This document shows positions 16,659 to 54,711 of a stretch of 64,000 nt of DNA, in pieces. Each line of letters starts with the position of its first letter. The stretch's first letter is position 1. The stretch is from Patescibacteria group bacterium (lineage in GTDB: Bacteria > Patescibacteriota > Microgenomatia > UBA10105 > UBA927). A program made the translations under genes and the position numbers. The stretch covers positions 472,150 through 536,149 of the forward strand of contig JBMOPU010000012.1 in NCBI GenBank assembly GCA_049322955.1, in the 5' to 3' direction. The notes beneath the pieces were generated by a model. That model was not told where the DNA came from, ran no database searches, and was given only the letters and a program-made list of their open reading frames with translations.

Positions 16659-16879
16659 CGCTCTTGTGATAATCGAATCTGTCCAGAAGAGATAAAGAGT
16701 ATTTGAATAGAAACAGCGCAGTGCCCTTGCTTTCGCGCGAAAGCGAAAGTCAGCTTGGCTGAGGCACGTCGAGCAAAACGCAAGTTTTCTCTCGAGATTG
16801 CCCTTTAACAATCGAATGGTGATAGGTATTTTTTTGATGTAGTCAGTTTTAGTCAAACTAAAGCTCCTACGTCAATTTT

Positions 16880-18379
<1,500 letters not shown>

Positions 18380-21889: not shown

Positions 21890-21964
21890 GGCGCGTTGGC
21901 GAAGTGGTAACGCAGGAGTCTGCAAAACTCCCATGCGCCGGTTCAATTCCGGCACGCGCCTCCA
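21890..21964 (+). tRNA. tRNA-Cys (GCA)
   Basis: A cloverleaf was folded by hand. It has a 7-bp acceptor GGCGCGU/ACGCGCC, anticodon loop CUGCAAA, T-arm GCCGG-UUCAAUU-CCGGC, U73 discriminator and an encoded CCA. Confidence 0.9.
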
Positions 21965-24504: not shown

Positions 24505-24582
24505 AGGGTAACAGTTGGCGGCCTAAAGTTCAATTGAGGATACACGGGTTATTGTGTTACAATTATCCCTATTGTTCTTGCC

Positions 24583-24596
24583 TTGGGTGCGTAGTT
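24583..24596 (+). repeat. 14-bp direct repeat (TTGGGTGCGTAGTT) duplicating the 5' end of tRNA-Ile
   Basis: The second copy lies at 24878-24891 and includes the first 12 nt of tRNA-Ile. The two copies bracket the GIY-YIG ORF. Confidence 0.75.
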
Positions 24597-24611
24597 TCTG
24601 GCAAAGCCAGA
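24597..24611 (+). repeat. Hairpin motif TCTGGC-AAA-GCCAGA (copy B)
   Basis: A perfect 6-bp inverted repeat lies 24 nt upstream of the GIY-YIG ATG. The same stem occurs at 44229-44243 and 47484-47498. Confidence 0.6.
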
Positions 24612-24634
24612 TCGGGCTTCGCCTGACAGTGGGT

Positions 24635-24889
24635 ATGTATTATGTCTATGTACTGAAAAGCAAAGTGAATGATGACCTATATATTGGGTCTAGCGAAGAT
24701 TTACGAGTACGTTTTAAACAGAATAATAATGGCGAGGTTCAGTCAACAAAAGGATATAGACCGTGGGTATTAGCATAATACGAAGCGTATAAGAGTAAAA
24801 AAGATGCATTGGTAAGAGAAAAGAAATTAAAAATGCATGCAGTAAAAAGCGAGCTAAAAACTCGATTAACAAATAGTTTGGGTGCGTAG
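24635..24889 (+). pseudogene. GIY-YIG nuclease-family gene interrupted by an in-frame TAA
   Basis: MYYVYVLKSKVNDDLYIGSSEDLRVRFKQNNNGEV.STKGYRPWVLA is followed by TAA, then the reading frame continues with YEAYKSKKDALVREKKLK... The stop replaces the conserved Tyr of the ..YYEAY.. block, a single-base change from TAT or TAC. The 3' end overlaps tRNA-Ile. Confidence 0.7.
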
Positions 24890-24951
24890 TTCAGTGGTAG
24901 AACGCTTTCCTGATAAGAAAGAGGTCCATAGTTCGATTCTATGCGCACCCA
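24880..24951 (+). tRNA. tRNA-Ile (GAU)
   Basis: A cloverleaf was folded by hand. It has acceptor GGGUGCG/CGCACCC, anticodon loop CUGAUAA, T-arm CAUAG-UUCGAUU-CUAUG and A73. CCA is not encoded. Confidence 0.9.
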
Positions 24952-25363
24952 CACAACGTATTCGATGTGGATCTTCCAGAGTGATGGGTAGATCCTGCAA
25001 ATAATTGACTGAATCAACCGTCGCTACTTAAGCGCTTACGCGTCGTTACTCACCAGAGCGGGTGTCGGCATTTCCGCAAGATGATCGGGGTCGAATTCGC
25101 GTTTCTTTGCACCCCCGCGTGGCGATAAGAAGCTTCGAAGATTTTCCCGGGCAACTCCGGCATACAGACTTCCGCGGGCCAGATCGTCCGGATTTCCTTC
25201 AGACAGCTCTTTTGATATCGGGAGGAAATCTTGCCTTTTTTTGGGCTTTTCCTTACGTTTTGCTCTTGTTCGTGGTGCGGTTTCTATCTTTGTCATATGC
25301 ACCTATTATACACCTCTCGTCAAATATTATAGGATATTATGTGAGGTATATTACACAGGAGTT

Positions 25364-42082: not shown

Positions 42083-43888
42083 TCACTTCACCGTGACGCT
42101 TTTGGCCAGATTTCTCGGCATATCGGGATCAAAACCTCGTTCCATCGTGAGGTAATATGCCATCAGCTGGCCGATCACCACATTGGGAATGATGGTCACT
42201 TCACCCACGTCGGGGACGGGGATATACTCGTCAAATACTTCCTCCCGCACCGGCGAAATACCGATGATATGTGCTCCCCGAGCCTTCATTTCCATCGCAT
42301 TGGCGATAGCGCTCGCGTGATGGATGTCATTGGGTGCGTACACGATACACGTAGCACTTTTGGTAATTAACGCCAGCGGTCCGTGTTTGAGTTCTCCCGC
42401 CGAGACTCCTTCCGCGTGGATATAGGATATTTCCTTTATCTTAAGCGCACATTCAAGTACGGTGCTGTACGATATACCCCGACCTACCACGAAAAGATGC
42501 TCGCTGTTTTTAAGCGTATGCGCGATATCCTGGATTTTTGCGACGGTTTCGTTCTTTAACACCTCACGACAAGCTTTGGCCGCCTGCGCAACAAGTGATT
42601 GCCCGGTGCGGATGTCGCCCCGCATGGCATACGCCATCAGAAGCAGTTGTGCTACCATCGCGGTAAATGCTTTTGTGGAAGCGACTCCTTTTTCCGGACC
42701 CGCTCCTATGGGGAGCGCCATATCGGATGTCCGCCACAGTGACGAATTGACGACATTAACAAGCGAAAGGACTTTGGCATGATTCGCTTTTGCGTGTTTG
42801 ACTACGTCCAAAAGATCCATGGTTTCGCCCGATTGGGATAAAAAGAGCATGACCGAGTCCTTCGGCAGTATGTCGATATGGTGATGCATTTCCGTCGGAC
42901 TGCTCCAGTTGGTTATCTTTTTGGCGACCGTCGCGAAATAATACGAACCGGCCTGCGCCGCATATCCGCTGGTACCGCTACCCACAAGATAAATGCGGGA
43001 AGCGCTTTGCAATACTTTAGCCATCTCGGTTGCCTGGTGGGTTGATTCCGCGGCAATTTCAGTGAGTAATCCCGGCTGTTCATAAATCTCTTTCAGCATA
43101 AAGTACGGGTATTTGCCTTTTTCGGCCTCATCGGCCGTCCACGTGAGCAGTTGTTTCTTGGGTCGCACGCGTTCGCCGGTATAGGCGTTAAAGATATGGA
43201 TGTTTTCGCGCGTGACGACGACCATCTCGTCATCTTCAAGGAAATGTACCTGTTTGGTGTGCGGGAGCAGGGCCACCGGATCGCTTGCGAGGTAATTTTC
43301 CCCGTCGCCGAATCCCACGACCAACGGCGATCCGTTTCGTGCGGCTACCATTTCGTTTGCTGACGTATTGATGACGATGATGGCGTTTAACCCCTCCAGA
43401 TCCTTAAACGTCGCCTGGACGGCCTTGGAAAATGCCGGTGCCGCATCGCGGGGGAGCACGGTGAAATTTTTCAAATATTCTTCGACCAAATGGGCGATCA
43501 CCTCGGTATCGGTTTCGGATACGAATACGTGCCCCTGTTTCTTGAGGCGTTCACGCAGAACTTCATGATTCTCGACGATACCGTTATGGATGACGGCGAT
43601 CGTTTTCGTGCAATCAAGGTGCGGGTGGGCATTTTTGTCCGTTACGCCGCCGTGGGTGGCCCAACGGGTGTGGCCGAAGGCAAGCGCTCCTTCAGGCATG
43701 TCCGTAACGGTCGCTTTGCCGATTTTTCCCGCCTTCTTTTTGACCACTATTTTTTTGTCATTTTCATTCGACGGAACAACCGCGACACCCCAACTGTCGT
43801 AGCCACGATACTCCAGTGTTTTTAGTCCCGTAAGAACAATAGACGGCGCCGATTTTTTGGTACCGATATACCCGAAAATACCACACAT
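42083..43888 (-). CDS. glmS: Glutamine--fructose-6-phosphate aminotransferase
   Basis: MCGIFGY N-terminal Cys-amidotransferase domain and two SIS domains. AAGGAGG lies 8 nt upstream of the ATG. Confidence 0.95.
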   Translation of the reverse strand: MCGIFGYIGTKKSAPSIVLTGLKTLEYRGYDSWGVAVVPSNENDKKIVVKKKAGKIGKATVTDMPEGALAFGHTRWATHGGVTDKNAHPHLDCTKTIAVIHNGIVENHEVLRERLKKQGHVFVSETDTEVIAHLVEEYLKNFTVLPRDAAPAFSKAVQATFKDLEGLNAIIVINTSANEMVAARNGSPLVVGFGDGENYLASDPVALLPHTKQVHFLEDDEMVVVTRENIHIFNAYTGERVRPKKQLLTWTADEAEKGKYPYFMLKEIYEQPGLLTEIAAESTHQATEMAKVLQSASRIYLVGSGTSGYAAQAGSYYFATVAKKITNWSSPTEMHHHIDILPKDSVMLFLSQSGETMDLLDVVKHAKANHAKVLSLVNVVNSSLWRTSDMALPIGAGPEKGVASTKAFTAMVAQLLLMAYAMRGDIRTGQSLVAQAAKACREVLKNETVAKIQDIAHTLKNSEHLFVVGRGISYSTVLECALKIKEISYIHAEGVSAGELKHGPLALITKSATCIVYAPNDIHHASAIANAMEMKARGAHIIGISPVREEVFDEYIPVPDVGEVTIIPNVVIGQLMAYYLTMERGFDPDMPRNLAKSVTVK

Positions 43889-44262
43889 AGAAGCCTCCTT
43901 TGGCAGGTGATCCTATACGATGATAGGAAATAGTACGTTTTGAAGAATGTTGGGAGAGTAACGGACTCCGTTGTTTGTCGTTCTATGCCTCGCATTACTG
44001 CGGGGTTTCTCGCAAACATTGCGGTGGGGAGTGCCACCGAGGGGTTTCCGCAGATACTACTCCTTCCTGGGTTACCCGACTACTGGTTTTCCCATCTCCT
44101 CCCTGAAAACGGGAAGAAGAGAAAGAATGTCCGATTTCTCCCGCCGTGGCGGGAGACCCCTTCCTCGTATCCCTCCTCTCAGTCTGGCTTTGCCGGACAG
44201 TGAGGGCGGGCCACACGCTTATATATTCTCTGGCGAAGCCAGATCCCGCTGTGCGGGACAAT
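43889..44262 (-). promoter_or_regulatory. Long structured 5' leader of glmS; candidate glmS-ribozyme-like element (unverified)
   Basis: A 474-bp ORF-free spacer sits in an otherwise tightly packed genome. The leader-strand sequence contains ACGAGGAAGGGG (cf. the GACGAGGAUGGAGG core of the glmS ribozyme), several GC hairpins and GCGGG/CCCGC pseudoknot-capable pairs. No confident full alignment to the ribozyme was possible by eye. Confidence 0.25.
44229..44243 (+). repeat. Hairpin motif TCTGGC-GAA-GCCAGA (copy A)
   Basis: A perfect 6-bp inverted repeat lies 93-120 nt upstream of the deoxynucleoside kinase start. A degenerate copy, TCTGGC-TTT-GCCGGA, is at 44183-44197. Confidence 0.6.
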
Positions 44263-47411: not shown

Positions 47412-47450
47412 AAGCGCCAAAAAGCTTTTTGAGGCGCCTTTTTTATTTTT
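47412..47450 (+). terminator. Rho-independent terminator
   Basis: AAGCGCCAAAAAGC/TTTTTGAGGCGCC stem followed by TTTTTTATTTTT. Confidence 0.7.
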
Positions 47451-47483: not shown

Positions 47484-47498
47484 TCTGGCTCAGCCAGA
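47484..47498 (+). repeat. Hairpin motif TCTGGC-TCA-GCCAGA (copy C)
   Basis: A perfect 6-bp inverted repeat lies 14 nt upstream of the ATG at 47512. Confidence 0.6.
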
Positions 47499-47511: not shown

Positions 47512-48360
47512 ATGAAAAATCTGGAACAACAGTCGTCGCTTCAGTTTTCCCCTCAGTCTTTCACGCGCACGGAAAAATTACCCATTACCTTTGTGACCAG
47601 CTCCGACGGACACAACAAGGCCGCGGTATTTCAAAAATGGCTTCCCGATTGGGAAATCGGGCATCGCGAACCGCTGTTTAATGAGGATAAAATTCACCAA
47701 ACCGCTCCCCGGGACGAACACCGTCCGCAGGTGATTGCCGAGCACAAGGCAAAGGATGATATTGCCATGGCGCAAGCCATTTCGGGGATTGCCAATGCGA
47801 TCGTCGAGAATGCCGATTTATACACCGACGGTGATGAAAAAATGCTTCTTTACACCGACACGGTACAATTGGTGCACGTTTCCGATACGGAAACGGCAAT
47901 CCTCGAAAAGCCGGTGGGAGATCCCCTCGAGTGGGCGACCAATTCTCCGGAGGCAATGATTCAATCGGGCAAGGATATAGAGATCATCAATGCCTTAACG
48001 GGCATTCGTGCGGGCAAAAACGGTATTTCGGAACCGGCAACCGTTATCTTACACGTTAAAGCCACGATGCGTCCCTTCACCCGCGAAGATATCATCGCGT
48101 ATGCCAAAACCCCGGGTAATACCATTGCGCAAACATCGGGAGGCATCTCCATGGCAAACGGAGGACGGTCATTTTTGGATATGGATAAACCGTTAATTGT
48201 CAGTGTCGCCGATTCCATGGACGATATTCCTACCGAAATCATCCGGTACGATACCTGGCACCATGTTCCCAATGCCGCATTAAAGCCCTTCATTTGCGGT
48301 GCGGTAGAGCCCGCCGTTGAACGCCTGGTTGCAAAAACCAAGGTAGCCCCCCTAACGTAA
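47512..48360 (+). CDS. Hypothetical protein, possibly divergent Maf/Ham1-like nucleotide pyrophosphatase
   Basis: Weak block similarity to Maf: KLPITFVTSSDGHNKAAVFQ (N-terminal Rossmann-like), MRPFTREDIIAYAKTPGNTIAQTSGGISMANGGRSF (cf. F..LS.EEI..YV.TGEPLDKAGAYGIQG) and DKPLIVSVAD (cf. NVVGLPL). This is a low-confidence assignment. Confidence 0.35.
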   Translation: MKNLEQQSSLQFSPQSFTRTEKLPITFVTSSDGHNKAAVFQKWLPDWEIGHREPLFNEDKIHQTAPRDEHRPQVIAEHKAKDDIAMAQAISGIANAIVENADLYTDGDEKMLLYTDTVQLVHVSDTETAILEKPVGDPLEWATNSPEAMIQSGKDIEIINALTGIRAGKNGISEPATVILHVKATMRPFTREDIIAYAKTPGNTIAQTSGGISMANGGRSFLDMDKPLIVSVADSMDDIPTEIIRYDTWHHVPNAALKPFICGAVEPAVERLVAKTKVAPLT

Positions 48361-53700: not shown

Positions 53701-54711
53701 GTGTCTTACGGTTATAGTGTGCAAAAGGTTCTTGATTACGTAAGTTGGGGATTCATCGGACTCCTGGCCCTTCCTACGGTCATGATTATCGCCACATGGG
53801 GAAGTGTCCCCGGCGATATGGGGTACGGTGTCAAACGGGCATTCGAGCAGACCCTCCTTGTTATGGCGCGCCCCTCCTACGATGCGGAAGCCCAACTCAA
53901 CGCCCAATACACCAAACGACGACTCGAGGAAGCCAAGGCGCTTTTGGCCAACAACCAATCATCCGCAGGGTTGGCATACCTGTCGCAACAGGTTACCGCA
54001 ACCAAAAAGTTGATCGAACGGGCACCGACCGCCGAAAAAAAACGCGAAGCGGCCAAAAACTATCTTTCAACGTTAAAAACGGTTTCCAAAGAACTGAAGG
54101 CGCAACAAACAAAGCCGAGGAGCATCGCGGTGAAGACAAAATCAAAGGGCACATTAAGCGGTGCTACGGTTGCGAGTCTGCAGTCTGATTTAGCCCGGCA
54201 AATTCAGGAGATACAAACCCTGCAGACGCAACTGGAGCAACAAGTGAATAGCTCCCCGCAGACACAACAACTGCTGTCACAGCTCTCTGCACAGGAGCAA
54301 CAGCTACGGCAGTTACAACAGCAGGTGCAATCTCAGTCCGTCACCGCCCCGGAACAGGTACAGCAAATCCAATCGCAGATGGAAACGGCTCAGGAACAAA
54401 CCCAATCGATCGTTTCGGAGATCACTACTCCGGAAAACGCGCAGGAATCACAGGGACAGGAAGTCATTGATCTGTCTATTGATAACACCGCAAGTCAGAT
54501 TGATGAAGCAATTGAAGAATTGGAGACTATTGTTGCGGAATCAGCCGATCAACAGCCGGAAATGGAAACAGAAACGGAGATCACCCCTGAGCCATCGGAA
54601 AATGACAACGGCGGAGAAAATAACGGCAACGGCCAGAATGGTAACGGCAACAATAACGCCGATAATAACGGCAACAATAGCGGGGAAAACGGCAACGGAT
54701 CGGAGAACTGA
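53701..54711 (+). CDS. Membrane-anchored Gln-rich coiled-coil protein with Asn/Gly-rich tail
   Basis: TM helix, a long Q-rich heptad region, and C-terminal NGNGQNGNGNNNADNNGNNSGENGNG low complexity. Confidence 0.55.
   Translation: MSYGYSVQKVLDYVSWGFIGLLALPTVMIIATWGSVPGDMGYGVKRAFEQTLLVMARPSYDAEAQLNAQYTKRRLEEAKALLANNQSSAGLAYLSQQVTATKKLIERAPTAEKKREAAKNYLSTLKTVSKELKAQQTKPRSIAVKTKSKGTLSGATVASLQSDLARQIQEIQTLQTQLEQQVNSSPQTQQLLSQLSAQEQQLRQLQQQVQSQSVTAPEQVQQIQSQMETAQEQTQSIVSEITTPENAQESQGQEVIDLSIDNTASQIDEAIEELETIVAESADQQPEMETETEITPEPSENDNGGENNGNGQNGNGNNNADNNGNNSGENGNGSEN

Follow-up and report, generated by a model that had tools for sequence, protein, structure and literature searches.

Small nuclease genes flanked by their own palindromic repeats are familiar from the REP/BIME elements and their RAYT proteins, which are HUH Y1 transposases of the IS200/IS605-like type. 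We know of no case in which REPs target tRNA genes or leave gene stubs. Among GIY-YIG nucleases, a similar arrangement has been described for the Ssn family (cd10448), single-domain proteins of about 94 amino acids (aa) such as SsnA of Neisseria meningitidis, whose genes typically lie in the order repeat-gene-repeat and are likened by the authors to insertion sequences and to REP/RAYT (Chenal et al. 2025, Nat Commun, PMC11893778). Ssn proteins bind the NTS/SRM hairpin repeat as single-stranded DNA (ssDNA) only, and on one strand only, and cut a few nucleotides (nt) 5' of it, the cytosine right after the palindrome being the base most critical for binding (PMC11893778). Two further systems for comparison are SegB of phage T4, a free-standing GIY-YIG homing enzyme that lies within the T4 tRNA gene cluster and targets it (PMC2330249), and the UPF0213 proteins, which have no known function or are presumed to act in repair (PMC1564403). 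Here we describe a small GIY-YIG gene that overlaps the 5' end of tRNA-Ile(GAT) in a 64,000-nt stretch (64 kb, hereafter the window) of contig JBMOPU010000012.1, from a Patescibacteria group bacterium. We consider it rather likely that this gene is a decayed, promoterless, single-domain cassette of Ssn-like or UPF0213-like type lodged in the tRNA-Ile unit, that the hairpins beside it are the cognate repeats of the nuclease, and that such cassettes enter tRNA genes by way of nuclease cuts.

The open reading frame (ORF) has 84 codons and is broken once, by an in-frame TAA (GCA TAA TAC); read through, it gives MYYVYVLKSKVNDDLYIGSSEDLRVRFKQNNNGEVQSTKGYRPWVLA, stop, YEAYKSKKDALVREKKLKMHAVKSELKTRLTNSLGA, stop. 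The original prediction, made from the letters of the window, had already recognized a GIY-YIG frame with a single stop, and the profile search bears it out: the Pfam GIY-YIG model (PF01541, cut-off 22.6 bits) matches residues 1-67 with 55.9 bits when the TAA is taken as Tyr, and the 47-aa truncated product with 36.3 bits. Domain searches of the 84-codon translation found no second domain. The stop replaces Tyr48, which is kept in at least 90% of 40 homologs, and lies one base away from the TAT found at codon 48 of the intact syntenic ortholog (protein P0001 of locus L001, 84 aa, 93% identical); the prediction had placed it at a conserved Tyr. The setting of P0001, in the order YfhO, GIY, tRNA-Ile, is common to four other assemblies (L001-L004). 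Compared codon by codon, the window and L001 differ at 20 codons, 13 of them synonymous and seven non-synonymous.

The stop cuts off the invariant residues E50, R61, E62 and K66, and a further substitution, His30 to Asn (CAT to AAT), alters another position kept in at least 90% of the 40 relatives. The catalytic core (two Tyr, Arg, His and the metal-binding Glu) is present as a full set in P0001 and incomplete in the window copy. Because H30N and the stop break this core, the window copy is best described as a pseudogene of a GIY-YIG member. Because two independent changes strike conserved positions, a single sequencing error, which the prediction had allowed beside a nonsense mutation, is a poor explanation. 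Recoding of TAA, which it had discounted, was ruled out: TAA is the commonest stop in the window and terminates 27 of its 53 long ORFs. With H30N and a stop at Tyr48 the nuclease gene is evidently dead or dying, and the tRNA evidently intact. The 47-aa product also occurs in public data (P0010), on a 990,597-bp Patescibacteria contig. A tblastn search found no further GIY copies in the 64-kb window.

Past the TAA, the frame runs on into the tRNA gene, as predicted. It ends TTG GGT GCG TAG, the terminal TAG being nt 8-10 of tRNA-Ile, so that frame and tRNA overlap by about 10 nt and the last three sense codons and the stop lie at the tRNA 5' end. The tRNA-Ile(GAT) was called by ARAGORN, with its 3' end at 24951 or 24952, and scores 72.5 bits with Rfam. 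Between 24400 and 25100, at E up to 10, it is the only Rfam match; no ribozyme, intron or other known RNA was found there. A tRNA intron carrying the nuclease gene was ruled out, since the tRNA is complete and uninterrupted 3' of the ORF and no ribozyme is matched.

The exact 14-bp direct repeat TTGGGTGCGTAGTT noted in the original prediction is present on both sides of the gene and nowhere else in the 64 kb (Table 1). This limitation to two sites rules out a chance repeat; by our own estimate, which is not the output of a tool, an exact 14-mer would recur by chance within about 300 nt some 1e-6 times. The prediction had derived the repeat from the tRNA 5' end. The derivation holds, and the extent has to be revised. 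Beyond a 30-nt double hairpin the match to the tRNA restarts as CAGTGG-G-TA (the intact tRNA reads GTAGTT followed by CAGTGGTAGAAC), and the last matching base, in GGTA, is the A of the ORF's own ATG. The upstream element is thus not a 14-mer: it is tRNA-Ile nt 1-20, interrupted by a 30-nt insert between nt 12 and 13. We refer to such truncated 5' copies of a tRNA as stubs. In a relative, L007, the second part of the stub, CATCGGTATG, is an allele of the type found in L089 (see below).

Insertion of the cassette is supported by empty sites. When metagenomes were scanned with the N-terminal region of YfhO, the protein encoded next to the locus, three YfhO-syntenic relatives emerged, L087 and L088 (61% identity) and L089 (68%), in which a TGnTACAAT box is followed directly by tRNA-Ile and neither a GIY gene, nor the upstream 14-mer, nor a hairpin is present. 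They were set against the filled loci (the window and L001-L004/L085), a comparison that the original prediction had suggested. Because the empty sites run from the box straight into tRNA-Ile, the cassette is, on this comparison, an insertion within the tRNA-Ile(GAT) transcription unit, placed between the tRNA promoter and the intact tRNA. An inserted cassette had been proposed beforehand, together with the possibility that relatives carry the 14-mer upstream of tRNA-Ile without any GIY gene; in the three empty sites both are missing, and the proposal stands. The TGnTACAAT box recurs at the equivalent position in L001, L005 and L006. In the window it forms part of a promoter-like site that is probably the original tRNA-Ile promoter and would now drive the stub, the hairpins, the GIY ORF and tRNA-Ile; the cassette most likely depends on it.

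The ortholog L001 has hairpin units on both sides of its gene. The second copy of the double hairpin lies 3' of the intact tRNA, within a duplicated tRNA 3' piece (CCATAGTT-30 nt-CGATTCTATGCGCACCCA; L001 4320-4392), and interrupts the same local sequence, TAGTT^C, this time in the T-loop of the extra fragment. A 3' fragment of this type is absent from the window (24952-24960) and from the more distant L005 and L006. Either it was lost from the window by recombination between two 19-nt tRNA 3' ends, or it was gained recently in the L001 lineage.

The link between gene and tRNA extends to the whole family. The protein family is very large: 7092 clusters match a profile of 40 relatives at E up to 1e-6, and the best 120 of them carry generic names only. 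A scan of species-representative genomes gave at least 556 confirmed loci, of which 80 were fetched, and the statistics on loci given here use 81 homologous loci. In these, 27 tRNAs on the same strand start between -30 and +130 nt from the ORF stop, for 0.67 expected from the tRNA density of the same 81 loci. At least nine tRNA species adjoin the homologs (Ile-GAT, Cys, Val, Ser, Pro, Glu, Ala, Lys and Ile-TAT), so that relatives of the cassette do sit beside other tRNAs, as had been anticipated. An exact 9-nt overlap of ORF and tRNA, with the stop TAG inside the tRNA, is found in seven of the 81 loci, and the window ORF is arranged likewise. Most tRNA-adjacent loci have a 5' stub of the same tRNA upstream of the ORF. 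Stubs are 8-60 nt long, and their start lies close to tRNA +1, at most a few nt away, in nearly every locus examined. The exception is L050, whose repeat reaches about 15 nt farther upstream and so takes in 3'-terminal sequence of a second GIY ORF. This part of L050 (1240-1400) is a tandem structure, with the 3' end of the second GIY ORF placed before the stub. Downstream of the intact tRNA, a 3' tRNA remnant is often found. In L009 (2830-2972) such 3' remnants are repeated, carry hairpins and include the 20-nt 3' flank of the tRNA; L008 (2826-2960) has three 45-nt repeats with a single hairpin in place of the tRNA-Cys T-arm.

The stub or remnant and the intact tRNA beside the gene represent different alleles in several loci (L007, L020/L022, L092 and L095). 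The clearest pattern is seen in the Moranbacteria loci L018/L020/L022. There, an outer 5' stub, GGTCGCG, pairs in acceptor-stem fashion with an outer 3' remnant, CGCGACC, and the inner, intact tRNA-Cys has GGTCCGA/TCGGACC, unlike the outer pieces. Judged by this pairing, the outer pieces are one old resident tRNA gene, split by an incoming unit made of the GIY gene plus a tRNA. Similarly, the allele of the L007 stub (GGGGCGGCTAGTT...CATCGG) is that of tRNA-Ile in the empty site L089 and not that of its own inner tRNA, and L092 and L095 have the same mismatch between stub and inner tRNA, with a GCGCGC allele. These comparisons show imported tRNA alleles apparently accompanying the gene in some lineages. 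Because the repeat varies in length and its alleles are not identical, the stub is not the target-site duplication of a staggered cut.

The hairpins were then characterized as a class. Their unit has the form TC-NNNC-nnn-GNNN-GA (a 15-mer) and mostly comes as two in tandem. When the loci were scanned for this 15-mer, the hits clustered in two zones relative to the ATG, -20 to -70 (26 hits) and +340 to +400 (22 hits), over a background of about one per 50-nt bin elsewhere. Within tRNA stubs and remnants, the points of insertion are the D-stem (12/13, in Ile), the anticodon (34/35, in Cys and Ser; 35/36 in the tRNA-Glu of L055), 26/27 and the T-loop (54/55), and excising the inserts restores the tRNA sequence exactly. 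Among the inserts that are defined by interruption of a tRNA only, the halves form 6-bp stems in every case, with at least eight different stem sequences. Six single mismatches were found in inserts, four of them G.T on the gene strand and none A.C, a count that fits folding of the gene-sense strand, as RNA and as ssDNA alike. Of 38 units, 25 have a C directly after their last hairpin, as do all four units of the window, and 21 have a G in front. The double hairpin of the window is identical to that of L005/L006 at 29 of 30 positions, and the third codon positions of the ORF at only 59-61%, so the hairpin is either constrained or repeatedly renewed. From their position and conservation, the hairpins belong to the cassette. 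Hairpins, H30N and the family-wide link to tRNAs had all been overlooked in the original prediction.

Table 1. Positions of the features of the tRNA-Ile(GAT) locus and of the other hairpins of the window.
Feature	Position	Strand	Remarks
Promoter-like site: TTGAGG and TG-extended TACAAT, spaced by 18 nt	24534-24563	+	consensus scan; about 21 nt 5' of the stub
Upstream 14-mer: TT + tRNA-Ile nt 1-12, first part of the 5' stub	24583-24596	+	not present in empty sites
Double hairpin, 30 nt: TCTGGCaaaGCCAGA (24597-24611) and TCGGGCttcGCCTGA (24612-24626, one G.T pair)	24597-24626	+	splits the stub exactly between tRNA nt 12 and 13
Second part of the stub, CAGTGGGT: tRNA nt 13-18, one extra G, then T	24627-24634	+	compared with intact tRNA CAGTGGTAGAAC, L005 CAGTGGTATG, L007 CATCGGTATG
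GIY-YIG mini-nuclease pseudogene	24635-24889	+	codon 30 AAT (24722-24724), codon 48 TAA (24776-24778), final TAG 24887-24889
Downstream 14-mer: last 2 nt before the tRNA + tRNA-Ile nt 1-12	24878-24891	+	exact repeat
Intact tRNA-Ile(GAT)	24880-24952	+	ARAGORN, Rfam; sequence identical to tRNA-Ile of empty sites L087/L088
Single hairpin TCTGGCtttGCCGGA, one T.G pair	44183-44197		tip of stem P1 of the glmS ribozyme
Second perfect double hairpin, TCTGGCgaaGCCAGA TCCCGCtgtGCGGGA	44229-44258		abuts the 5' end of the glmS ribozyme; no GIY gene adjoining
Single hairpin TCTGGCtcaGCCAGA, then C	47484-47498		a terminator-like hairpin (about 47414-47445) on one side, the ribosome-binding site of the ORF at 47512 on the other

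Away from the GIY gene, two of the hairpin sites of Table 1 lie at a glmS ribozyme (43962-44230, minus strand), upstream of the glmS gene (42083-43888, minus strand). The ribozyme scores 36.6 bits (E 4e-7), just below the Rfam gathering score of 37, the score being lowered by insertions of 16 and 100 nt in two of its variable loops. The region also contains a longer TC..GA hairpin (44137-44156). By these sites, the hairpins seem to settle in another structured-RNA gene with the core spared.

With respect to the Ssn family, the present cassettes share a single GIY-YIG domain of about 85-95 aa, a gene bracketed by short hairpin repeats that are also scattered through the genome, and a directional repeat with a C after the palindrome; the core stem of NTS, TCCCGC/GCGGGA, is among the stems used here. 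They differ in that the hairpins have a 6-bp stem and a 3-nt loop, usually abut as two in tandem and lack a conserved GTC arm. The Ssn study says nothing of lodging in tRNA genes, of stubs, of hairpins set precisely into tRNA sequence or of a tRNA copy that accompanies the gene, and the words "tRNA" and "Patescibacteria" do not occur in it (PMC11893778). Nor was an association of GIY-YIG genes with tRNAs found in the literature searched, whose coverage leaves out most subscription papers. We regard these loci as what is apparently a large, undescribed, tRNA-associated branch of Ssn-like GIY-YIG elements.

Against the profile of the 40 relatives, the SsnA ortholog of the gonococcus scores 52.1 bits, and hhalign gives a probability of 98%; nine NTS repeats surround the gene of this ortholog. 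In the record used (L091, N. gonorrhoeae NZ_CP119140.1, 1880787-1883978), a 2.17-Mb chromosome is filed as a plasmid, and both the ssnA ortholog and its nine NTS repeats are unannotated. A canonical NTS-like repeat, TGTCATTCCCGCGAAAGCGGGAATCCCC, was found in a single one of the 81 loci (L033, about 640-690; a metagenome-assembled genome labelled Syntrophaceae), some 280 nt downstream of a homolog that shares 52% identity with the window protein. Its position beside a homolog links the present protein family to the published repeat type.

The likeness to REP/RAYT resides in dispersed repeats, clustered between genes, and in a presumed recognition of hairpins on ssDNA; the chemistry is different, covalent transesterification by HUH proteins versus hydrolysis by GIY-YIG enzymes, and the folds are unrelated. 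Among solved structures, the best matches are the UPF0213/prokaryotic Slx1-like proteins 1ZG2 (52 bits) and 1YWL (39 bits). These have in common with the window protein a minimal GIY-YIG domain of similar length, without the C-terminal Asn extension, and differ in having no described link to hairpin repeats or tRNA genes.

In the reading that we prefer, SsnA serves as the model, and the hairpins would be the cognate repeat of the nuclease family. On the same model, an intact nuclease would recognize the hairpin in ssDNA, with a contribution from the C after the palindrome, and would nick a few nt 5' of it. Such ssDNA could become accessible at a passing replication fork, or in the transcription bubble where a tRNA gene is strongly expressed. 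Cuts of this kind, together with host repair or recombination, may place hairpins and let the cassette enter tRNA genes, the tRNA sequence itself supplying homology in any recipient. In several lineages, the cassette would arrive with its own tRNA copy; the resident tRNA gene would be left as hairpin-studded remnants, and the new tRNA would keep the cell viable. Once installed, the cassette would ride on the strong tRNA promoter. The stop codon inside the tRNA may have a role of its own: processing by RNase P would remove the stop from the mRNA, and a stop-less mRNA would limit production of the nuclease and keep its level low.

Several points weigh against this reading. GIY-YIG enzymes only hydrolyse DNA, which leaves the copying and joining of hairpins or cassette unaccounted for, and the Patescibacteria clade is known here from sequence alone, as regards activity, mobility and strand specificity. 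The profile of the 40 relatives scores the UPF0213 structure 1ZG2 (52.2 bits) and gonococcal SsnA equally well, which would suit a place outside the Ssn clade (cd10448) as much as one within it. The published SRM motif, HGTCWY..YYVSBRH..WNVSBRG..RNCYNB, matches none of the TC..GA hairpins; its single match in the window (54576-54607, minus strand) is unrelated to them. As the hairpin set from the pattern scan was preselected for complementarity, covariation counts made on it would be circular, and only the inserts recognized by tRNA interruption are unbiased. At the window locus, the gene is flanked by hairpins on its 5' side only, and the stub is identical to the intact tRNA, so that a simple duplication on insertion is possible there. 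Finally, the empty sites could be losses by recombination between repeats rather than the state before gain.

A bolder proposal than the one we prefer is that these loci form a distinct class of selfish elements that replace essential tRNA genes. The nuclease would bring its own tRNA, the resident single-copy tRNA gene would be broken and seeded with hairpins, and the host would depend on the incoming copy; we hold this for possible, though doubtful. Here too the nuclease gene would ride on the tRNA promoter, and the conserved tRNA sequence would be a landing site in almost any genome. The nuclease may mistake the ssDNA hairpins of the tRNA gene for its own repeat. The cut made by SsnA lies on the 5' side of the hairpin, at a distance of about 8-9 nt; counted from the D-arm, this distance would lead to tRNA +1, where nearly all stubs begin. 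If the proposal is true, a minimal element of about 300 nt, encoding a single 84-aa protein, would have a new means of making itself difficult to remove from very small genomes, and the tRNA-gene debris in Patescibacteria assemblies would be explained.

Alternatively, the gene might be a free-standing homing endonuclease of the T4 Seg type, which would cut the double-stranded DNA (dsDNA) of tRNA genes lacking it and be copied from the donor, along with the adjacent tRNA, in the repair of the double-strand break, conserved tRNA sequence providing the homology arms and the hairpins being passengers or blockers of the cleavage site in the stubs. The precedent is SegB, a GIY-YIG homing enzyme lying in, and targeting, the T4 tRNA cluster (PMC2330249), and the two share several features: both have a GIY-YIG domain, are embedded among tRNA genes, are inherited with adjacent tRNA sequence and show a presence/absence polymorphism, in our case at a conserved site. 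The imported tRNA allele beside the gene in some lineages would follow from homing as well, and stubs could serve as the left homology arm. SegB, however, is a phage gene with a separate DNA-binding region, cuts dsDNA and has neither hairpin repeats nor target stubs, whereas the 84-aa product is a bare catalytic domain, without the DNA-binding domain of Seg and Tev enzymes. Remnants of the resident gene, which clean homing would not leave, are the rule here; the intact tRNA beside the gene would also stay a target. Moreover, the hairpins are tied to the cassette ends and better kept than silent sites, unlike passengers. Homing of this type is therefore unlikely.

According to the explanation first offered, a transposon-like or homing cassette of small size (24597-24877) entered the tRNA gene at a staggered cut of 14 bp; filling in the cut would have doubled the 14-mer and thereby restored the 5' end of the tRNA. 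Two identical 14-bp copies in direct orientation, and empty sites lacking both the gene and the repeat, are what such a cut would produce. A second dialect of the family also resembles such a layout. In about 11 of the 81 loci the end motif CCCTCAC...GTGAGGG is found, and in L019, L031, L043, L082 and L038 (about 2420-2900) the ORF lies between these inverted ends, with a direct repeat of 8-12 nt that corresponds to tRNA nt 1-8/11 (Val, Ile-TAT, Lys, Ala). There are also ORF-less miniatures, of about 66 nt in L038 and as a 41-nt palindrome in L082. The inverted ends, short repeats and miniatures resemble classical terminal inverted repeats with target-site duplications. At the window locus, the tRNA match restarts after the 30-nt hairpin, which makes the repeat nt 1-20 and the "281-bp cassette" a composite. 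Across loci the repeat ranges from 8 to 60 nt and yet begins nearly always at about tRNA +1, which a fixed cut would not give, and in L007, L020/L022, L092 and L095 stub and intact tRNA are different alleles. The only ORF, besides, encodes a hydrolytic GIY-YIG enzyme, incapable of strand transfer, and no transposase is present. The duplication of a 14-bp target around a 281-bp unit, as proposed in the prediction, is thus abandoned, and we judge the staggered-cut mechanism as a whole quite improbable.

Equally improbable is a domesticated host nuclease, structure-specific and of the UPF0213/Slx1 type, co-transcribed with tRNAs for the sake of its expression, with stubs arising by local duplication or unequal crossing-over within tRNA arrays and with REP-like hairpins, acting in regulation or as terminators, spread by another enzyme: it would suit the closest solved structures (UPF0213 proteins and SLX1), the hairpins away from GIY genes (glmS ribozyme, 5' UTR) and the tandem arrays of L050 and L009, but the gene is patchy among close relatives, decays in the window without apparent harm, adjoins at least nine tRNA species, some with foreign tRNA alleles, and has hairpins that peak exactly at the cassette borders, all of which argues for a selfish element rather than a housekeeping gene.

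The interest of the locus lies in the family architecture that it reveals and not in the dead copy itself. It bears on the role of Ssn-type nucleases outside Neisseria and on how their hairpin repeats multiply. Natural before/after pairs are available, in tRNA-Ile sites with and without the cassette and in resident and imported tRNA alleles. As hairpins are inserted with single-nucleotide precision in a sequence of known original state, the insertion site, strand and target preference can be read directly. For annotation, it follows that stubs and hairpins beside small GIY-YIG genes should not be taken for assembly errors or simple target-site duplications.

Usually, tRNA-Ile(GAT) is located in the spacer between the 16S and 23S rRNA genes. 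Here, the 16S rRNA gene (16877-18379) has no adjoining 23S gene in the window, tRNA-Ile(GAT) lies 6.5 kb downstream of 16S in a transcription unit of its own, and a tRNA-Cys is found at 21890-21964.

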